Positions 16,476-38,633 of a stretch of 64,000 nt of DNA are shown in pieces (within the stretch, counting starts at the first letter, position 1; each line of letters starts with the position of its first letter). This DNA is from a candidate division WOR-1 bacterium RIFOXYB2_FULL_37_13. Lineage in GTDB: Bacteria; Margulisbacteria; WOR-1; XYC2-FULL-46-14; XYC2-FULL-37-10. The stretch is from NCBI GenBank assembly GCA_001771535.1, contig MEUB01000036.1, positions 842-64,841 on the forward strand, in the 5' to 3' direction. The position numbers were made by a program, and so were the translations under genes. The notes under the pieces were generated by a model. The model saw nothing but the letters and a program-made list of their open reading frames with translations, searched no databases and had not been told where the DNA came from.

Positions 16476-17468
16476 TTAATTATCAGAAGAAAAAATCTTT
16501 AATTTCACTATTCTTTGGTTGTCTGTATCAGCAATATAAATTTCACCGTTTTTGGAAACAGTAATTCCTGTCGGGTTATTAAGCTCCCCTTTTTTATATC
16601 CACGCGCGCCAAAGGAATATAAAAATCTGCCCATTTTATCAAACATCTGCACGCGGTTATTTCTGGAATCAGCAACATAAATATATTTATTGTCTATTGC
16701 GATTCCCTTGGGAGCGTTAAATTCCCCCTTCTCTTTTCCAGCCTTTCCAAAAGAAAAAACGGGCTTCCCATATTCGTCAATTTTTTGGATCCTGTTATTC
16801 CCAGTATCTACAACATAGATTGATCCATCTTGGTCAACAACCACATCAAAGGGGGAATCAAAAAAACCATCACCCCGCCCAAAGCCTCCTATAACTTCTA
16901 CAAAATTCCCCATACTGTCAAATTTTTGGATCCTGTCATTGCCTGAATCAGCAACATAAACATGTCCTGAAGTATCAAGTGCCAACCCTTTTGGATAGAT
17001 AAATTGGCCGTTTTGCTTGCCATAATCGCCAAATTCAAGAACAGGGTTTCCCCTTATATCAAATTTTTGGATCCTGTTGTTTTCCTGATCTGCCACATAA
17101 ATGTAAAAATTGAAATCCACAACAATACCTGACGGGATATTAAATTGGCCGCTTGACGAGCCAAACTTGCCAAATTGATAAGAGAAAATGCCATTACGCT
17201 GCAGTCTTTGAATCCGATTATTGCCTGTGTCTGCGACAAAAAGATCCCCGAGCTGAGTCTCAATATCTCCAACAAAAGAGATATAAACATCCTGCGGAAA
17301 ATAGAATTGTCCGTCTCCTGATCCGGGAAAACCGATTTCATCCACATAAACAATCTCTACCTTATCAGTATGAGACAACGTTGCATTATCCAAAGTGGGT
17401 GCAATACCAAGAGAATATACAGGTAAAACCAAAAAACTCATGAAAATAAAAGCAAACAGATTTCTCAT
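16476..17468 (-). CDS. NHL-repeat beta-propeller protein, secreted
   Basis: Signal peptide plus six repeats of VADxxNNRIQKF(D) with GxxxGQFxxPxGI. Confidence 0.85.
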   Translation of the reverse strand: MRNLFAFIFMSFLVLPVYSLGIAPTLDNATLSHTDKVEIVYVDEIGFPGSGDGQFYFPQDVYISFVGDIETQLGDLFVADTGNNRIQRLQRNGIFSYQFGKFGSSSGQFNIPSGIVVDFNFYIYVADQENNRIQKFDIRGNPVLEFGDYGKQNGQFIYPKGLALDTSGHVYVADSGNDRIQKFDSMGNFVEVIGGFGRGDGFFDSPFDVVVDQDGSIYVVDTGNNRIQKIDEYGKPVFSFGKAGKEKGEFNAPKGIAIDNKYIYVADSRNNRVQMFDKMGRFLYSFGARGYKKGELNNPTGITVSKNGEIYIADTDNQRIVKLKIFSSDN

Positions 17469-19237: not shown

Positions 19238-20038
19238 TCATTGGAAATTGGACATTGGAAATTGGAAATTGTTCCCAAACATCTCTCTCATCTTACCCAA
19301 TACATCTTCACTTTTCAACAAGCTCTCCCCTATTAGGACGGCAGAAAAGCCGGCAGACTTGAGTTCGTCTATTTGAGATTTCTCGCTTATACCGCTTTCA
19401 GAGACCAAAATCCTTGATTTGAGTTCTGGGAATTTATCCAGCAATTTTAAAGAATTATTAAAATCGACTTTTAGAGTATCAAGGTTCCTGTTGTTTATTC
19501 CTACAATATCACAATTTAAAGACAATGCTTTTTCAATATCATATTCATCGTGAGTTTCAAGAAGGACTTGGAGCCCAAGCTCTTTAGCTTTTTCAAGGAA
19601 TCTTGAAAGATCAGGCAATTCTAAAATCCTAGCAATAAGCAGAATTGCATCAGCCCCTGCAATGCGCGATTCTGTTATTTGAAGTTCATCTATTATAAAA
19701 TCTTTGCGGAAAACAGGAAGTTTTACCGCGGCTCTTACCTGTTTTAGAAAGCCTATTTCACCTTGAAAATATGTTTTGTCGGTAAGAACAGATATTGCAA
19801 AGGCACCTGAAGATTCGTACTGTTTGGCAATTGAAACGGGATCAAAGTTTTTGACAATAATACCAGCGGAAGGAGAGGCTTTTTTGATTTCGGCAATAAG
19901 GGAAATTTTATTTTCTTGATTGATGGAAGACTTAAAGTCCCGCAAGTTAGGATCAAACTCCGTCTTAGCTGTTGCCAATCTTTCTTTTAAAGCTTCGATC
20001 TCTTTTCTTTTAGTTAAAATTATTTCATCGAGGATCAT
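19238..20038 (-). CDS. trpC: Indole-3-glycerol-phosphate synthase
   Basis: [29 protein letters not shown] motifs. The last about 11 codons ([11 protein letters not shown]) are encoded by the heptamer repeat. Confidence 0.9.
19240..19271 (-). repeat. Heptanucleotide tandem repeat NTCCAAT (about 4.5 units, read on the minus strand)
   Basis: Plus strand reads ATTGGAA ATTGGAC ATTGGAA ATTGGAA ATTG. Same unit and coding-strand orientation as the array at 33935-33990. Confidence 0.85.
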
Positions 20039-22006: not shown

Positions 22007-22474
22007 TTACTTAAAATTAAAAGCCACATTTTTTGTATTTTTAGGATCTATTTTAACAGGAAGAATAGCTCCAACCTGCATAAGATGTATAGCATTAAAA
22101 GGTATTACAAACCCATCTTCAACTATATAAGCAGGATACATAGGTGATGATATTTCTAATTTTATATCCATTACAGGCTGATAATTTAATTGGGTTTTTG
22201 ATGTTGCTATGCTTAATATTTCCCCCTTTCCATCAATCCCTTTTTTTAAAATATCTTTATCCCCAACAAAATTCCTCCAAATTACTTTTAATCCCTTGCT
22301 AAAAAACAACAGCAACAAAAGTATAGGCAGTAAAATTATTGCAATATTTATAATAGGAGTTATGCCAAAGTCTGTAATATTGCCAACATTGGAAAAATTC
22401 AAAATGAAAACTGAAGGAAGAACAAAAAAGATCCCAAAAATGACAAAAATAAGTACAAACTTTTCAGATCTCAT
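22007..22474 (-). CDS. Membrane protein, paralog family A (short, one C-terminal domain)
   Basis: Two N-terminal TM helices, then GKGEILSI...QPVMDIKLE...YIVEDGFVIP...VGAILPVKIDPKN. Paralogous to 32879-33739 and the disrupted 29223-32274. Confidence 0.65.
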   Translation of the reverse strand: MRSEKFVLIFVIFGIFFVLPSVFILNFSNVGNITDFGITPIINIAIILLPILLLLLFFSKGLKVIWRNFVGDKDILKKGIDGKGEILSIATSKTQLNYQPVMDIKLEISSPMYPAYIVEDGFVIPFNAIHLMQVGAILPVKIDPKNTKNVAFNFK

Positions 22475-22491
22475 TTTCCCACCTCAAGAAC

Positions 22492-22520
22492 AGCTTAAGC
22501 TAGTAGATATGCTTTGTCAA
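22492..22520 (-). promoter_or_regulatory. Sigma-70-like promoter of family-A paralog (module copy 1)
   Basis: Minus strand TTGACA-17 nt-TAAGCT, then GAGGTGG RBS and ATG. The module is conserved upstream of all three paralogs. Confidence 0.55.
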
Positions 22521-22679
22521 TAAGGGCTTAAGCCCCAAGAACCAATTTTTCCTCCAAAATAAATGAAATTTTTTAAAAATGATAATGATAAGGTACTATA
22601 GATATTGTCAGTTTTTGTTTGAAAAATAATTTTCAGGGAGGCATATTTATTATGGTTATAAGTTTAGGTACTATTGTAA

Positions 22680-29226: not shown

Positions 29227-30001
29227 AGCGCAGTTTTTTCCCCTGAAGGATTAATATTCCAGGCATTTATAGCTACCCTTTTTGGGTTTTTTGGATCAAC
29301 CTTAACGGGGATAACGGCTCCCAACTGGATAAGAGAAAGCCCCATTAAAGGAATCAAAAATTTGTTTTCTATAATATAATATTCGAGCTTGTCCGTCAAC
29401 TCCCAGTCTTGTCTAATGCAAGATGTCCCTGAAGTAAAGACTGTTTCTAACGCAAAATGTCCCTGAAATGTCATTATCGAGCTTATGAATAAGCTAATAA
29501 TGATGGATCATAAAATAAAAACTGTTTCGAATCTTGAAAATCTTCTAAAAGCTGTGGTGAATTTAGATTTTCAACTAATTGACAAAAAAACTACCTACGA
29601 TTGGATTGATGATATTTTAAAAAGATTCAATTACATGTCTGCTTCAAAGAAACATAAAGGAATTTTAAAGCGTTACATTATGAAAATGACTGGTTATAGC
29701 GGTCGACAAGTTAAAAGGCTCATCAAAAAGCAATTTCAAACTGGAAAATTGACAATAAGTAAAAGTTCTAACCGTTGCAAATTCAAAAATATATACACCA
29801 AAAAAGATATCGCTTTGCTGGTTAAAACGGATAATCTTCACAATCGCTTAAATGGGTTAGCCACTAAAAAGATTTTTGAAACCGAGCATTTTACTTATGG
29901 AAAAAAGAAATATGAAAGGTTAAGTAAAATCTCTATAGCTCATATTTACAACTTGCGAAAAACTACGACATTGATCTTCCCCCCAAAAAGTAGACAGTAA
30001 A

Positions 30002-30862
30002 TTATGCATTCACGAACTTTTTTTCAAAGTTGTCTGGCGACAGAAACCCTATGGACGAGTGCCTTCTCTGTCGATTATAGAACACTTCGATGTAATTGAA
30101 AATGGACTGCCGCGCCTCCTTTCTTGTGGCATATCTTTCAAAATAGACTTGTTCAGTCTTCAATGAATGAAAGAAACTCTCGGTTATAGCATTATCGTAA
30201 CACCTCCCTTTGCGACTCATGCTTTGAATGAAACCATAATTGTTAAGCAATAGTCTCGTATCTCTGGCCGCATATTGAATACCTCGATCAGAATGAAATA
30301 TTATATTTTTGCCTGGCTGGCGGCTCAAGATAGCACCCTTTATGGCCTTGACCACCAATTGGCTTTCTAGGTGCTTTCCCATAGACCATCCGACAATCTT
30401 TCTGGAAAAGACATCAAGAACAACTGCAAGATAAAGCCAGCCCTCCAATGTCCAGATGTATGTAATATCTGATGTCCAGACTCGATTGGCTGATGCTGAA
30501 ACAAAGTTTTGCTTTAGAATATTTGGAGCTACTGGCAAAGTGTGCTGAGAATCAGTTGTCACTCTAAATTTTCTTCTTGTCTTAGCCACAAATTTGCCTT
30601 TCATAAGACGCTCAATCCTTTTTTTATTGTAATGATAACCTTGGCTCTTAAGTTCGGCACAAACTCTGGGCCGACCATAAAGCTCATGGTTTTCAAAAAA
30701 AATCTTCTTGATCTTATCCAGCAAAACCTCATTTTCTGTTTCTCTTTGGCTTTTCTCTCCCCTTAGCCATTTGTAATAGCCGCTTCGTGATACATCTAAC
30801 AACTGGCACATCTTCTCAACCGGAAAGTCGAAGCATTGCTCTCTTACAAACATAAATCTCAT
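30002..30862 (-). CDS. IS3 transposase OrfB (DDE integrase core)
   Basis: WTSDITYI, HSDRGIQY, CYDNAITESFF DDE motifs. Expressed as an OrfAB fusion by -1 frameshift. Confidence 0.9.
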   Translation of the reverse strand: MRFMFVREQCFDFPVEKMCQLLDVSRSGYYKWLRGEKSQRETENEVLLDKIKKIFFENHELYGRPRVCAELKSQGYHYNKKRIERLMKGKFVAKTRRKFRVTTDSQHTLPVAPNILKQNFVSASANRVWTSDITYIWTLEGWLYLAVVLDVFSRKIVGWSMGKHLESQLVVKAIKGAILSRQPGKNIIFHSDRGIQYAARDTRLLLNNYGFIQSMSRKGRCYDNAITESFFHSLKTEQVYFERYATRKEARQSIFNYIEVFYNRQRRHSSIGFLSPDNFEKKFVNA

Positions 30863-31158
30863 CTCGGTTGTTTGGAGAAGATGGCCACTGCTTTTTTTAA
30901 AATATCTCGCTCCAACCTGGCCTCTGCCAACTCTTTTCTTAAACGCCTGATTTTAAGAGATTCCTCAATCCCTCCGCTTGTTTCTCCGTCTTCTCCCTCT
31001 CTTCGATCACGTTTTTGCCATCCATACAGCGTACTCGATGACACTCCTAAATCTTTAGCAATTGAGGCTACAGGTCGCTTGCTGGTATTAATTAAATCCA
31101 GCGTTTCCCTAATGAAGTCCTTATCACACCGTTTATATGGTCCTTTCTTTTTCCCCAT
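30859..31158 (-). CDS. IS3 transposase OrfA (HTH)
   Basis: 99 aa, VASIAKDLGVSSSTLYGWQK helix-turn-helix and leucine-zipper-like C-terminus. Confidence 0.9.
   Translation of the reverse strand: MGKKKGPYKRCDKDFIRETLDLINTSKRPVASIAKDLGVSSSTLYGWQKRDRREGEDGETSGGIEESLKIRRLRKELAEARLERDILKKAVAIFSKQPR
30892..30899 (-). promoter_or_regulatory. Programmed -1 ribosomal frameshift site of the IS3 element
   Basis: Minus strand A AAA AAA G inside ...ILKKAV of OrfA. The -1 frame continues into OrfB (KKSSGHLLQTTEMRFMFVREQ...). Confidence 0.75.
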
Positions 31159-32291
31159 AAAATCCCCCCCCTCTAATATATTATCAAAATCTCTAATTAC
31201 TGTGTCTACTAAAAGGGGGGAGGGTCACATATCGTGACAGATCAATTACTTTCACCAAGACTAATCCAAGGAAAATTAATATCGGCGAAAGAAAACGCCC
31301 TGAACCTCAAGGCAAGCCAGGCTATATCCGCGTAGATACTGTGCATCAGGGCGATTCCGACAAACAAAAAGGGGTCTATTATATAAATACTGTCGACGAA
31401 GTTACCCAATGGCAGGCAATTGCCGCTGTAGAAAAAATATCTGAAACATATTTACTCGAGGCTCTCTTAGGCTTGCTCAATCAATTTCCATTTGAAATCA
31501 TTGAATTTCATAGCGACAATGGTTCAGAATACATCAACAGACAAGTCGCAGAACTTTTAAACAGACTTTTAATTAAACTTACGAAATCTCGAGCTAGACA
31601 CTGTAATGATAACGCTTTAGTAGAGTCAAAAAATGGGGCTGTAATTAGAAAATGGATGGGCTATGCTCATATTCCTCAGAAACATGCCCAAGACATCAAC
31701 AAATTCTTTAAAAAATATTTTAATTTATATTTAAACTACTACAGACCTTCTATTTTCCCTGAAATTGTATTTTCTGCAAAAAGAAAAGAGGTCAAAAAAT
31801 ACAGATATGAGAATACAATGACCCCTTTCGCAAAACTAAAATCCATTTTTGAATACAAAAAGTTCCTCAAAAAGAATACTTCCGTCGTTGACTTAGAATT
31901 GTTTTTAAGCAATGATAGTCCTAATGAGTTTGCTGAAAAGGTGGTGAAGGCTCAAGATTGTCTCTTTAATGGCATTTCTACCTAACCCTTTTTCAGGGAC
32001 ATTCTTGCATTAGAAAATACTCTCCCTTTTCACGAAGCTCCTGATCACTAACCAATGAAGTCCACAGAATCTTAAGAACAGAAATTATAAAAGGAAGAAA
32101 AATCAAGATCGACACAACAGGAATAGCTACGGGTAAAATATCACTCGGTCGCGAACCAAACCCCATAGCAACTCGGCTTCTATACATATCCAAAAAAACA
32201 GCTGGAATTATACCAAAAAAAGCAACGGTAAAAATAAAAATAGAAAAAATAATTATAAATTTTGCTGATCTCATCTCTCCACCTCAATAAC

Positions 32292-32341
32292 AGCTTAAAT
32301 TAGGAGAAATGCTTTGTCAATAAAGGTTTAAGTAGTATAAT
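32292..32341. promoter_or_regulatory. Bidirectional promoter module copy 2 (back-to-back, -35 boxes overlapping)
   Basis: Minus: TTGACA (32320-32315), 17 nt, TAAGCT (32297-32292) for the disrupted paralog. Plus: TTGTCA (32314-32319), 16 nt, TATAAT (32336-32341) for 32372. Confidence 0.55.
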
Positions 32342-32371
32342 GCCTATACATTTAGTAAAAGGAGTTGTCAT

Positions 32372-32878: not shown

Positions 32879-33739
32879 TTATATAGGCTTTTGTATACTT
32901 CCAGTCATAGCTATCATGACATGTGTTGGATCATTGTTGTCTATTTCACAAGGATATACAGCTCCCACTCTAATAAGTTGTAAGGCAACATCCGGCAAAG
33001 GCATCTCTTTATCAAGAACATATGGAGTTATTCCTTCTCCGGTTACCTCATATTTAAGAGAATAAACTTTTTGACCATTTTTTGTCTTTTCCGCATCGGC
33101 AAAACCCATTATCCTAGCCTGGCCTTTTTTTCCATTAACCACAACGCCTCGCTCCACATTCCCAGCAACCCCTAAATTTTGAAAATTTACAGGCATCCCT
33201 TGCATTATGGGTTGTCCTTGAAAATTTTGCGCAGTTCTTTTTTCTGAAGGATTAATATTCCAGGCATTTATAGCTACCCTTTTTGGGTTTTTTGGATCAA
33301 CCTTAACGGGGATAACGGCTCCCAACCGGATAAGAGAAAGCCCCATTAAAGGAACCATAAATTTGTCTTCTACAATATAAGGAGGCTGGTTTGAGGTCGA
33401 CACTTCCAGTTTCAGTTTCATCATCGGTTGATTGTTTATTTGCGTTCCGGTCTGAATAACCTCCAAAATTCGCGCTTGCCCGTCAACTCCTTTTTCACGA
33501 AGTTCTTGATCACTAAATATCATTTTCCAGATTATTTTAATAGGGCCAATCAAAGAAGGAATAACAAAAAAAATAATCGCAATAATAAATACTATCGGCA
33601 AAAAATCTATCGGACGCAAACTAAGTCCCATATCGACTCTACTTCTATAAATATTCAGAAAAACGGCCGGAAGAACACCAAAACAAACAACAATAAAAAC
33701 AAAAACAGAAGAAATAATTGCAAATTTTACTGATCTCAT
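32879..33739 (-). CDS. Membrane protein, paralog family A (long, two C-terminal domains)
   Basis: 286 aa. The N-terminal TM pair is about 60 percent identical by eye to the 31993-32274 fragment. 33244-33389 is nearly identical in DNA to 29243-29388. The second domain repeats the pattern (GQARIMGF...LIRVGAVYPCEIDNNDP). Confidence 0.65.
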   Translation of the reverse strand: MRSVKFAIISSVFVFIVVCFGVLPAVFLNIYRSRVDMGLSLRPIDFLPIVFIIAIIFFVIPSLIGPIKIIWKMIFSDQELREKGVDGQARILEVIQTGTQINNQPMMKLKLEVSTSNQPPYIVEDKFMVPLMGLSLIRLGAVIPVKVDPKNPKRVAINAWNINPSEKRTAQNFQGQPIMQGMPVNFQNLGVAGNVERGVVVNGKKGQARIMGFADAEKTKNGQKVYSLKYEVTGEGITPYVLDKEMPLPDVALQLIRVGAVYPCEIDNNDPTHVMIAMTGSIQKPI

Positions 33740-33756
33740 TTTTTCACCTCAATGAC

Positions 33757-33806
33757 AGCTTAAAATAGTAGAACTGCTTTGTCAATAAGGGTTTAAGAAG
33801 TATAAT
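33757..33806. promoter_or_regulatory. Bidirectional promoter module copy 3 (drives 32879-33739 and rsmH)
   Basis: Minus: TTGACA (33785-33780), 17 nt, TAAGCT (33762-33757). Plus: TTGTCA (33779-33784), 16 nt, TATAAT (33801-33806), only 9 nt before the rsmH ATG 33816. Confidence 0.5.
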
Positions 33807-33815
33807 GTTTATTAT

Positions 33816-34715
33816 ATGGATACATTCCACCTGCCTGTAATGGCAAAAGAGATAGTTAATTTTCTCTCCCCTCTTAACGGAAAAACAATCGTCGATTGTA
33901 CGGTGGGTGGAGGGGGACACATCTCAAAACTAATATCCAATATCCAATTTCCAATTTCCAATGTCCAATGTCCAATGTCCAATTTCCACATCATAGCTAT
34001 CGACCAAGACCAGGAAGCTCTTGAGTTTGCTAAAAAACGATTGGCTAAATATGACAACATTGAATATATCCATGACAATTTTGGCAACTTGGCAAATATA
34101 ATAAAAGAGTCTGTTGATGCTTTTCTCTTTGATCTTGGCATTTCATCATACCAGATAGACCAGGCTTCCCGCGGTTTTAGCATACGATACGATGCGCCTC
34201 TTGATATGCGAATGGACAAAAGTAAACAGACATCCGCTCGCGAAATAATCCACAATTCAAGCGAGGATGAATTAGCGCAAATTTTCAAAGAGTATGGTGA
34301 AGAGCGGTTTTCAAGAAGAGTTGCCCGCGCGATTGTCTTGGAAAGAGACAAAAAAGAGATAAACACAACATTTGAGCTGAAAGATATAATAGAGAAAGCA
34401 ATCCCCACATGGAAAAAGAGAGAGTCTGTTACCCGCATATTCCAAGCACTCCGAATTGCTGTTAATTCAGAGCTTGATGTTTTAAAAAAAGCTCTGGAAT
34501 CAACAATCCCTTTACTTAAACCGGAAGGGAAAATAATCGTAATGTCGTATCATTCATTGGAAGATCGAATTGTTAAATGGTTTTTCAGAGATAAAGCTAA
34601 AAATGGTATACTTAATATACTTACAAAAAAGCCTGTTCTTGCGACAGAAGAAGAGACTGCAATTAATCCAAGGGCAAAAAGCGCTAAGTTGCGGTGCGCT
34701 GAAAAGAACAACTAA
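33816..34715 (+). CDS. rsmH: 16S rRNA (cytosine1402-N4)-methyltransferase RsmH/MraW
   Basis: HLPVM, DCTVGGGGH, AIDQDQEA, DLGISSYQID, SYHSLEDRIVK motifs. Contains the heptamer-encoded insert [18 protein letters not shown]. Confidence 0.9.
   Translation: MDTFHLPVMAKEIVNFLSPLNGKTIVDCTVGGGGHISKLISNIQFPISNVQCPMSNFHIIAIDQDQEALEFAKKRLAKYDNIEYIHDNFGNLANIIKESVDAFLFDLGISSYQIDQASRGFSIRYDAPLDMRMDKSKQTSAREIIHNSSEDELAQIFKEYGEERFSRRVARAIVLERDKKEINTTFELKDIIEKAIPTWKKRESVTRIFQALRIAVNSELDVLKKALESTIPLLKPEGKIIVMSYHSLEDRIVKWFFRDKAKNGILNILTKKPVLATEEETAINPRAKSAKLRCAEKNN
33935..33990 (+). repeat. Heptanucleotide tandem repeat NTCCAAT, about 8 units, in frame inside rsmH
   Basis: ATCCAAT ATCCAAT TTCCAAT TTCCAAT GTCCAAT GTCCAAT GTCCAAT TTCCACA. 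Confidence 0.9.
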
Positions 34716-34716
34716 A

Positions 34717-35004
34717 ATGAAAAAAATAAACGACAAATCAAAATATATAATACTTTTAATAGTAATTTTATTTTTGGTTCTGCTTCATTTATACATTCAA
34801 ACAAAAAGCATTACATTAAAATATGAGGGTACAAATTTAAAAATAAAACTTAAAGATATAAAAATTAAAAACAGAATCCTAGCAAGCATGCTGGCAAAGG
34901 AAGAATCCCTGTATAGAATCGAAAAAAGAGCAAAAGAAGAACTCGGCATGTCTTACCCAAAAGATATCAATTACATAATAATCAGGGAGGAAAATAAAAA
35001 ATGA
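34717..35004 (+). CDS. FtsL/septum-formation-initiator-like small bitopic protein
   Basis: Position directly after rsmH (mraZ-rsmH-ftsL synteny). MKKINDKSKYIILLIVILFLVLLHLY TM helix then coiled coil. The track start 34570 lies inside rsmH and is unlikely. Confidence 0.6.
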   Translation: MKKINDKSKYIILLIVILFLVLLHLYIQTKSITLKYEGTNLKIKLKDIKIKNRILASMLAKEESLYRIEKRAKEELGMSYPKDINYIIIREENKK

Positions 35005-38147: not shown

Positions 38148-38633
38148 ATGAAAAAATTTGTTATGCTGCTATCTATTTTTGTCGCTGGGGTTATTGTTTT
38201 GGGTTTACCGGTATCTGCCGCATGGAGAGGCACTGAAGGAAGAGAAGCTACGAGGCGAACCGTTGGGAAAGCTGCTGTAAAAGAATCTGGAAAAACAACA
38301 GAAGATATCAGAGGAAGATCAGGGAGAACTGAAGGAAGAAGAGCTGTTGGAAAAGCAGCTGTAAAACAGTCCGGGAAAACAACAGAAGATATCAGAGGCG
38401 TTGAAGGAAGACAGGAGACAAGAAGAACCACCAGTAAAGCGATTCTTAAAGAATCTGGAAAAACAACAGAAGATATCAGAGGAAGATCAGGGAGAACTGA
38501 AGGAAGAAGAGCTGTTGGAAAAGCAGCTGTAAAACAGTCAGGGAAAACAACAGAAGAGATAAGAGGGGTTGAAGGAAGACAAGAATTCAGACAAGAGGTA
38601 GGCAAAGACGTCTACGAAGAGACAAAAGAATAA
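38148..38633 (+). CDS. Secreted basic tandem-repeat protein (161 aa)
   Basis: Signal peptide MKKFVMLLSIFVAGVIVLGLPVSAAW, then at least four 28-aa repeats K(E/Q)SGKTTEDIRG(R/V)xGRxExRRxxxKAxx, organised as a 168-nt higher-order repeat (38281 versus 38449). Confidence 0.7.
   Translation: MKKFVMLLSIFVAGVIVLGLPVSAAWRGTEGREATRRTVGKAAVKESGKTTEDIRGRSGRTEGRRAVGKAAVKQSGKTTEDIRGVEGRQETRRTTSKAILKESGKTTEDIRGRSGRTEGRRAVGKAAVKQSGKTTEEIRGVEGRQEFRQEVGKDVYEETKE

Follow-up and report, generated by a model that had tools for sequence, protein, structure and literature searches.

Simple sequence repeat (SSR) contingency loci operate by slipped-strand mispairing, for instance of the tetranucleotide tracts in the lic and mod genes of Haemophilus influenzae (PMC2651432, PMC11868660). 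Heptamers are the commonest long SSRs in bacteria (PMC4679880, PMC4692102), and described heptameric repeats include TAACTGA of Beggiatoaceae, Cyanobacteria and Bacteroidetes (PMC4679880) and GGGAATC of Xanthomonas (PMC4692102). In-frame insertion into protein-coding genes is known for the Rickettsia palindromic elements (RPE) and other repeats that resemble miniature inverted-repeat transposable elements (MITE) (PMC10969869). Here we describe an array of NTCCAAT heptamers in the rsmH gene of a candidate division WOR-1 bacterium (RIFOXYB2_FULL_37_13, contig MEUB01000036.1), on a stretch of 64,000 nucleotides that is referred to below as the window. The array exists in two lengths on otherwise identical DNA, and only one of these leaves the rsmH reading frame intact. 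The main features are:

33935..33990, + strand: heptamer array of eight NTCCAAT units, with N = A,A,T,T,G,G,G,T and TTCCACA as the last unit, encoding RsmH residues 40-58
33963..33983, + strand: longest perfect run, three consecutive GTCCAAT units, one of which is absent from the 7-unit allele
33816..34715, + strand: rsmH, encoding the 16S rRNA m4C1402 methyltransferase, 299 aa, intact at eight units (PF01795, 1M6Y)

The array consists of two ATCCAAT, two TTCCAAT and three GTCCAAT units followed by TTCCACA, and is recognized by Tandem Repeats Finder as a repeat of period 7 with 8.1 copies and 94% matches (33932-33988). It is in frame within the + strand open reading frame (ORF) 33816-34715, between the sequences encoding GGGGH and IIAIDQD, so that the nucleotide sequence, the repeat finder and the ORF frame all agree with the eight-unit in-frame array given in the preliminary description of this DNA. 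Simulation of alleles of different length showed that the frame of rsmH is kept by 5, 8 or 11 units only, and hence that a change of a single unit causes a frameshift, as had been proposed. Two consecutive units (TCCAATNTCCAAT, at most one mismatch) occur ten times in the window against 0.97 expected, a number that was reached in none of 100 shuffled sequences. The TCCAAT hexamer as such shows no enrichment (52 occurrences, 65 expected), and the signal therefore lies in the tandem arrangement. Only one other clean heptamer array is present in the window (19240-19271, - strand), and it is also composed of NTCCAAT units. Arrays of this unit are open in each of the six frames whichever nucleotide is at position N, a property shared by 30% of heptamers with similar G+C content, and can therefore survive inside genes in either orientation. 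A search of the window against Rfam gave no match above the gathering score.

The polymorphism in unit number, which had been put forward as a possibility, was found by comparison of assembly consensus sequences. Eight units are present in the window and in ERZ4902888, ERZ28563808, ERZ27254750, JGI 3300025095 and JGI 3300002096, while three metagenome contigs, L001 (ERZ27254852), L002 (ERZ27254748) and L003 (ERZ27254812), have seven. In the seven-unit sequences (L001, L002/L136 and L003/L134) the run of N reads GG instead of GGG, i.e. one GTCCAAT unit is gone and the flanks are identical. Compared to the window, L001 shows one single nucleotide polymorphism (SNP) and the 7-nt deletion over 20.7 kb, and L002 shows no SNPs and the 7-nt deletion alone over 11.3 kb. 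The array is the sole length difference between these near-identical genomes, and the lost unit lies within the longest perfect run. ERZ27254750, with eight units, appears to be of the same series as the seven-unit samples. The seven-unit ORF stops after 57 codons (…SNVQCPISTS*), and no compensating frameshift was seen in 20 kb of the seven-unit genome. A homologue of 246 residues that derives from seven-unit contigs (P0003) is 100% identical to the window RsmH and has as its start Met54, inside the array. A frame-shifting tandem tract within an ORF (8 x 7 nt, codons 40-58) and a variation of 7 versus 8 units against 0-1 SNP in 11-20 kb are both features of phase-variable genes, the two alleles here going back to possibly one event. 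A protein search with the N-terminal 71 residues for the short ORFs of 6-, 7-, 9- and 10-unit alleles yielded only unrelated RsmH fragments from other organisms. The 30-nt junction at the 5' side of the array gave no match in the metagenome contig collection, which evidently excludes the short JGI contigs that carry the sequence.

The window, with a G+C content of ~36%, encodes an RsmH identical to OGC21744.1/OGC32605.1 from aquifer metagenome-assembled genomes (MAGs) designated 'candidate division WOR-1 bacterium', and the next named relatives are from Saganbacteria and Margulisbacteria, at 57-60% identity. These matches place the host in candidate division WOR-1 (Saganbacteria/Margulisbacteria-type) and do away with the cyanobacterial link that had been considered. 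A second WOR-1 species co-occurs with it; its contig L259 shows ~71% nucleotide identity to the window in trpC, and 84-90% in rsmH and an adjacent gene of 141 codons. The assignment of rsmH itself rests on a match to Pfam PF01795 (MraW/RsmH) over residues 3-297 (E = 6e-98) and on solved structures, i.e. MraW of T. maritima (1M6Y, E = 1e-62), 1WG8 (E = 4e-56) and the E. coli protein (3TKA, E = 1.5e-49). Motif I for binding of S-adenosylmethionine (SAM), GGGGH, corresponds to residues 31-35, and IDQD to residues 61-65 at the end of strand b2, with D63 and D65 invariant in 34 RsmH orthologues. Hence, both the full-length family match and the combination of motif I with an acidic b2 residue, by which RsmH/MraW proteins are recognized, are found in this protein.

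The array falls in the loop between helix aA and strand b2. This loop varies from ~12 to ~50 residues among the 34 orthologues, with a mode of ~12, and has 23 residues in the window protein, 11 more than in T. maritima MraW and human/mouse METTL15, and 13 more than in the T. thermophilus protein. The segment is thus an insertion relative to the solved homologues, as the preliminary description had it. An AlphaFold2 model of the window RsmH, built from the homologue alignment (mean predicted local distance difference test (pLDDT) score 91, predicted template modelling (pTM) score 0.88) has a helix at residues 34-43, coil at 44-57 and a strand at 58-63, and its pLDDT dips to 59 for residues 41-50 and 72 for residues 51-60. 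According to this model, the array is predicted to encode the final part of helix aA and, preceding b2, a flexible loop at the surface, a permissive site, in agreement with the surface loop that had been anticipated. At 20 residues, the loop of the related co-occurring species is similar in length, but its sequence is unrelated and contains no array. The extra length of the window loop therefore does not come wholly from the array; of the earlier attribution, the part that stands is the greater length compared to solved homologues. Long inserts in the same RsmH loop are also seen in other Margulisbacteria orthologues (P0008, P0069, P0105, P0102 and P0016), some of them repeat-like (e.g. PSPSGRGGRGVR and an insert of 50 residues). 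The aA-b2 loop of RsmH looks like a recurrent landing or expansion site.

In E. coli, deletion of rsmH increases the doubling time by 15%, raises the level of non-AUG initiation and decreases UGA read-through by 50% (PMC2831307). Since such a deletion strain grows, the designation of rsmH as an essential-type gene is not upheld.

The second array of the window is situated at the end of the trpC gene:

19240..19271, - strand: NTCCAAT array with units T,T,G,T followed by GAATGTAT, constituting the last 11 codons of TrpC
19238..20038, - strand: trpC, encoding indole-3-glycerol-phosphate synthase, 266 aa (PF00218, E = 9e-82)

The PF00218 domain ends at residue 252, and the C-terminal tail encoded by the array lies beyond it. 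The array provides the T of the TGA stop codon, of which GA comes from the flank, and is located 25 nt upstream of a trpB-like start. TrpC of the related species is free of the array and ends 12 residues earlier at …KELF*, which indicates that the trpC array is an insertion that has replaced the stop codon. The four-unit arrays are invariant, that of trpC in 22 contigs and that of thiL in 4 contigs, which fits a slippage that depends on array length.

Additional copies were identified in a metagenome scan for TTCCAATTTCCAATGTCCAAT, which is common to both window arrays. The scan gave 50 loci, about a dozen of which are on contigs of low GC content that derive from the same aquifer data sets and contain a canonical tTCCAATtTCCAATgTCCAATtTCCAAT array. 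In related contigs, 11 of ~19 arrays are followed by G-N-N-[G/T]-GTA-[T/G/C]. The canonical T,T,G,T array with a G-N-N-K-GTAT flank, as well as palindromic copies, are found in contigs L149, L159, L172, L178, L183, L193 and L196. The palindromic copies in L183, L159 and L150 consist of two inverted arrays around a short core:

L183, 887-991: palindromic element of ~100 nt
L159, 2857-2948: palindromic element of ~100 nt
L150, 727-783: shorter palindromic element

The core is 44 nt long in both L183 and L159, has opposite orientations in these two contigs, and is absent from the window. The palindrome of L183 is predicted to fold at -55 kcal/mol (z = -10.7), and the sole Rfam matches of the palindromic element, to generic miRNA-hairpin models, are below threshold. 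The copies in L183 and L159 lie in frame within the sequence of a signal peptide, the charged N-terminus of which is on one side of the element and the hydrophobic core on the other. Other arrays are in frame within genes for housekeeping proteins on WOR-1-type contigs, with two sites in ThiL:

L149, 1102-2085: ThiL
L198, 6212-7189: ThiL
L164, 374-1471: MnmA
L174, 485-2212: MutL, array in the linker
L154: chorismate-binding enzyme

Arrays are also located just 5' of start codons (L178, L172 and L190). The nearest named protein to ThiL of L149, from a WOR-1 MAG, is only 59% identical, implying that the repeat family spans diverged species. The same ThiL loop carries the array in forward orientation in the window species and reversed in L149. 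In total, five arrays of at least two units were counted in ~91 kb assigned to the window species, the assignment of L198-L201 being indirect. The unit thus turns up again elsewhere in this and in related genomes, as expected of the lineage-specific genomic repeat that the preliminary description had suggested.

Outside this lineage, the pattern (TCCAATN)x4 is found at more than 119 loci from many phyla in a genome collection, and among the matches listed most cross-phylum arrays are built from one unit type and have flanks specific to their lineage. The unit forms 9 stretches in viral contigs, compared to 14, 22 and 12 for three heptamers of the same base composition. One element shared across phyla was therefore rejected, as the flanks are lineage-specific and the unit is no commoner than control heptamers in viral contigs; we read the cross-phylum matches as a general tendency of heptamers to form arrays. 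MAGs of Saprospiraceae/Chitinophagales (L029, L032, L056, L078, L079 and L085) contain (A/G)TCCAAT arrays followed by a conserved GTCCAAGTGGTGCGG, and Ca. Haliotispira prima (L015, L041, L074, L075 and L119) has ATCCAAT arrays every ~1.3 kb in a repeated gene family. Other lineages have TCCAAT-type array families of their own.

We propose, as the probable explanation of these data, that a selfish or neutral, slippage-prone repeat family has a copy in a permissive loop of a dispensable gene, and that the resulting switch is an accidental by-product rather than a selected contingency locus. The rsmH array would then be a member of the dispersed (N)TCCAAT family of WOR-1/Saganbacteria-type genomes, which may be retained within genes as long as an insertion adds a multiple of 3 nt. 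Replication slippage would add or remove 7-nt units, most easily in the run of three GTCCAAT units. Alleles of 8 units (or 5, or 11) would yield full-length RsmH, and the 7-unit allele a stub of 57 residues that keeps motif I and loses the rest of the enzyme, leaving such cells presumably without m4C1402. Since rsmH is dispensable, as judged from E. coli, the null allele could drift or be selected to high frequency. The locus would in this way constitute a mutational ON/OFF switch for a ribosome-tuning modification.

Several points weigh against this proposal. The strain in ERZ4902888 (L004), which is 0.56% divergent, keeps eight units with the same pattern of N, so that the array is not extremely unstable, and selection may act to preserve the ON state. 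A single indel event is documented, no 5-, 6-, 9- or 11-unit allele occurs among the assembly consensus sequences, and the three seven-unit assemblies may represent one clone that was sampled three times. The loss of function of the 57-residue product, and its tolerance in this organism, are presumed by analogy with E. coli. The descent of the rsmH array from the family is also debatable. It has the T,T,G…G,T order of the family, but the G-N-N-K-GTAT flank seen in the dispersed elements is missing. Orthologues often end the aA-b2 loop with SN[ILVF]K/H, in which Ser-Asn can be encoded by TCCAAT, and the related species has …GGCAATATCCATATCATAGCT at the position of …TCCAATTTCCACATCATAGCT in the window. 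Judged from these sequences, a native TCCAATNTCCA seed could have grown in place, which is as plausible as insertion of a family member.

The alternative that the array is a selected contingency locus seems unlikely to us. Its tract lies near the 5' end of rsmH (codons 40-58 of 299), as in classical phase-variable genes, and its eight units make it the longest array seen in the contigs of this lineage. Both alleles are present on identical backgrounds in different samples of one project (eight units in ERZ27254750; seven in ERZ27254748, ERZ27254812 and ERZ27254852), and the OFF allele is the assembled consensus, presumably the majority, in three samples. However, the observations comprise one event, with neither a third allele nor a reversion, and the same repeat is present at trpC, thiL and intergenic sites where switching is impossible, so that its presence is explained without selection for switching. 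Of the slipped-strand, phase-variation-like switch envisaged in the preliminary description, the 7- and 8-unit frameshift alleles were thus found, whereas the adaptive and reversible part was not borne out by this one indel event. A further-reaching scenario, which we regard as quite doubtful, would be a mobile family of heptamer arrays, open in six frames, that colonizes, in either orientation, loops and termini of housekeeping proteins and that, by expansion past a threshold, has turned rsmH into a reversible ON/OFF switch. If true, this would amount to heritable, reversible ON/OFF control of a universally conserved methylation of the decoding centre, and to phase-variable ribosome heterogeneity in a free-living environmental bacterium.

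Two other explanations concern the seven-unit allele itself. One of them, that the seven units result from an error in sequencing or assembly and that the array is a silent and stable insertion in frame, is very improbable. The array has 56 nt, much less than the k-mer length of 141 nt that can be read from the contig names, which makes collapse unlikely, and the identical deletion is found in three separate assemblies, in which the flanks are 100% identical and 20 kb contain no further indel. Assemblies are known to go wrong at tandem repeats, and the three seven-unit contigs all come from one series of k141 assemblies (names k141_...), but a fourth assembly of the same series (ERZ27254750, L137) has eight units. 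Equally hard to credit is a seven-unit allele that remains functional through ribosomal frameshifting, re-initiation at Met54 or a second copy of rsmH. The GTCCAAT units do generate ATG codons 7 nt apart, one of which is always in the downstream frame and was used by gene callers for P0003. A product starting at Met54 would, however, lack the GGGGH SAM-binding motif and strand b1, and neither a Shine-Dalgarno sequence before this ATG nor a slippery sequence in the unit is present. As to a second copy, the accession numbers OGC21088 and OGC21744 suggest that both rsmH types are held by one MAG, yet the second type lies on contigs with their own trpC of 71% nucleotide identity, and is assembled very differently (207 kb, against 2 kb for the window type, in contigs of the same sample, JGI 3300025095). 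This indicates two organisms in a mixed bin, and two rsmH paralogues in one genome were judged less likely in view of the diverged trpC of the second type.

In the same context of the two co-occurring species, RsmH record P0123 is a chimera of a window-type N-terminus and a C-terminus of the other type, and may have arisen by inter-species recombination or as an assembly chimera. An apparent truncation of rsmH in the related species (a 262-residue call, P0125) was rejected, as a stretch of N accounts for it in one scaffold and the end of the contig in the other.

The features in the immediate neighbourhood of the array are as follows:

33779..33806, + strand: promoter-like site TTGTCA-16-TATAAT, 11/12 matches (consensus match only)
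34584..34612, + strand: weaker promoter-like site with a TG-extended -10, inside the 3' end of rsmH (consensus match only)
34717..35004, + strand: DivIC/FtsL-like gene, 95 aa (PF04977, weak), starting 2 nt past the rsmH stop codon
35001-36428: gltX (PF00749), after the DivIC/FtsL-like gene and followed by unrelated genes

The upstream neighbour of rsmH is a divergent gene, and mraZ is absent. With only the DivIC/FtsL-like gene and gltX downstream, rsmH does not head a division and cell wall (dcw) cluster, contrary to what had been assumed. The first promoter-like site ends 10 nt before the rsmH ATG and no Shine-Dalgarno sequence is visible, which suggests that the rsmH mRNA is probably leaderless. 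The weaker site, located ~105 nt upstream of the ftsL-like start, could, as far as can be judged from its consensus match, sustain expression of ftsL-gltX in the case of an rsmH frameshift.

Various other repeats surround these genes. The sequence directly upstream of rsmH (33526-33812) belongs to a repeat of 112-287 nt with 75-78% identity, other copies of which are at 32061-32347 and 22421-22532. A 152-nt repeat with 94% identity is present at 29228-29379 and 33229-33380, IS3-type transposase ORFs are found at 30002-31985, and several metagenome contigs end at these repeats. Longer repeats inside ORFs include an 84-nt tandem repeat of 3.6 copies with 72% matches (38262-38566, inside ORF 38148-38633) and repeats with a 141-nt period (16620-17240, inside ORF 16476-17468). 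Adjoining trpC is a nucleotidyltransferase/HepT-like toxin-antitoxin pair (PF18765 and PF20797; 20112-20943), and in the related species the interval from trpC to rsmH lacks the ~10 kb segment that contains this pair.

As a rule, housekeeping genes are cleared of repeats that shift the frame, and nearly all cases of phase variation known to us come from host-adapted pathogens. In the natural groundwater population described here, a conserved ribosome-modification enzyme has intact and truncated alleles that are one repeat unit apart, which raises the question of repeat-driven switching of translation fidelity outside pathogens. It is apparently also the first documentation in this phylum of a heptamer-array family inside protein-coding genes: a full-text literature search found no paper linking Saganbacteria with 'tandem repeat', and in a search on rsmH, phase variation and simple sequence repeats there was no mention of rsmH among the 15 top results. 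The findings bear on how selfish repeats shape protein loops, and affect the annotation of MAGs, as the seven-unit allele is called as a 246-residue gene from Met54.

Compared to known systems, the rsmH locus resembles SSR contingency loci in that the tract is in the 5' part of the ORF, its unit is not a multiple of three, a change of one unit toggles the frame, and tract length is polymorphic between otherwise identical genomes. Unlike these loci, its host is a free-living, uncultured groundwater bacterium and not a host-adapted pathogen, and its target is a housekeeping rRNA methyltransferase and not a surface or restriction-modification gene. Moreover, the NTCCAAT unit has 7 nt, in contrast to the tetranucleotides of H. 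influenzae, and is also present at sites that are unable to switch.

The repeats share with RPE that they are short, dispersed and in frame in RsmH, TrpC, ThiL, MnmA and MutL, at surface loops or termini, and that some copies are palindromes of ~100 nt with a long hairpin (L183). The arms of the latter, however, are tandem heptamer arrays and not unique sequence as in RPE, and NTCCAAT copies can therefore slip and shift the frame. In addition, the rsmH and trpC copies are in frame at permissive sites, as are RPE/MITE, but are single arrays without a palindromic partner or core, i.e. they are not palindromic elements themselves. Inspection of the flanks by eye, with no systematic search for duplicated target sites or a partner gene, revealed no terminal inverted repeats, no target-site duplications and no transposition mechanism.

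There is also a similarity with the heptameric repeat families, i.e. the short tandemly repeated repetitive (STRR) sequences of cyanobacteria, TAACTGA and GGGAATC, which are likewise lineage-specific 7-nt units in many short dispersed arrays. Like the GGGAATC repeats of Xanthomonas, NTCCAAT arrays sometimes form inverted pairs, and like heptameric repeat families they are found just 5' of start codons (trpC-trpB junction, L178 and L172). Cyanobacterial STRR units are CCCCAGT, TTGGTCA and CAACAGT; the NTCCAAT repeats correspond to STRR in being dispersed heptanucleotide arrays, and differ in unit sequence and in their non-cyanobacterial host. The unit sequence and the host phylum (WOR-1/Saganbacteria) also set them apart from the other known heptamer families. 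Finally, the known heptamer families are mainly intergenic and TAACTGA contains stop codons, whereas NTCCAAT leaves all six frames open and is repeatedly translated within housekeeping genes.

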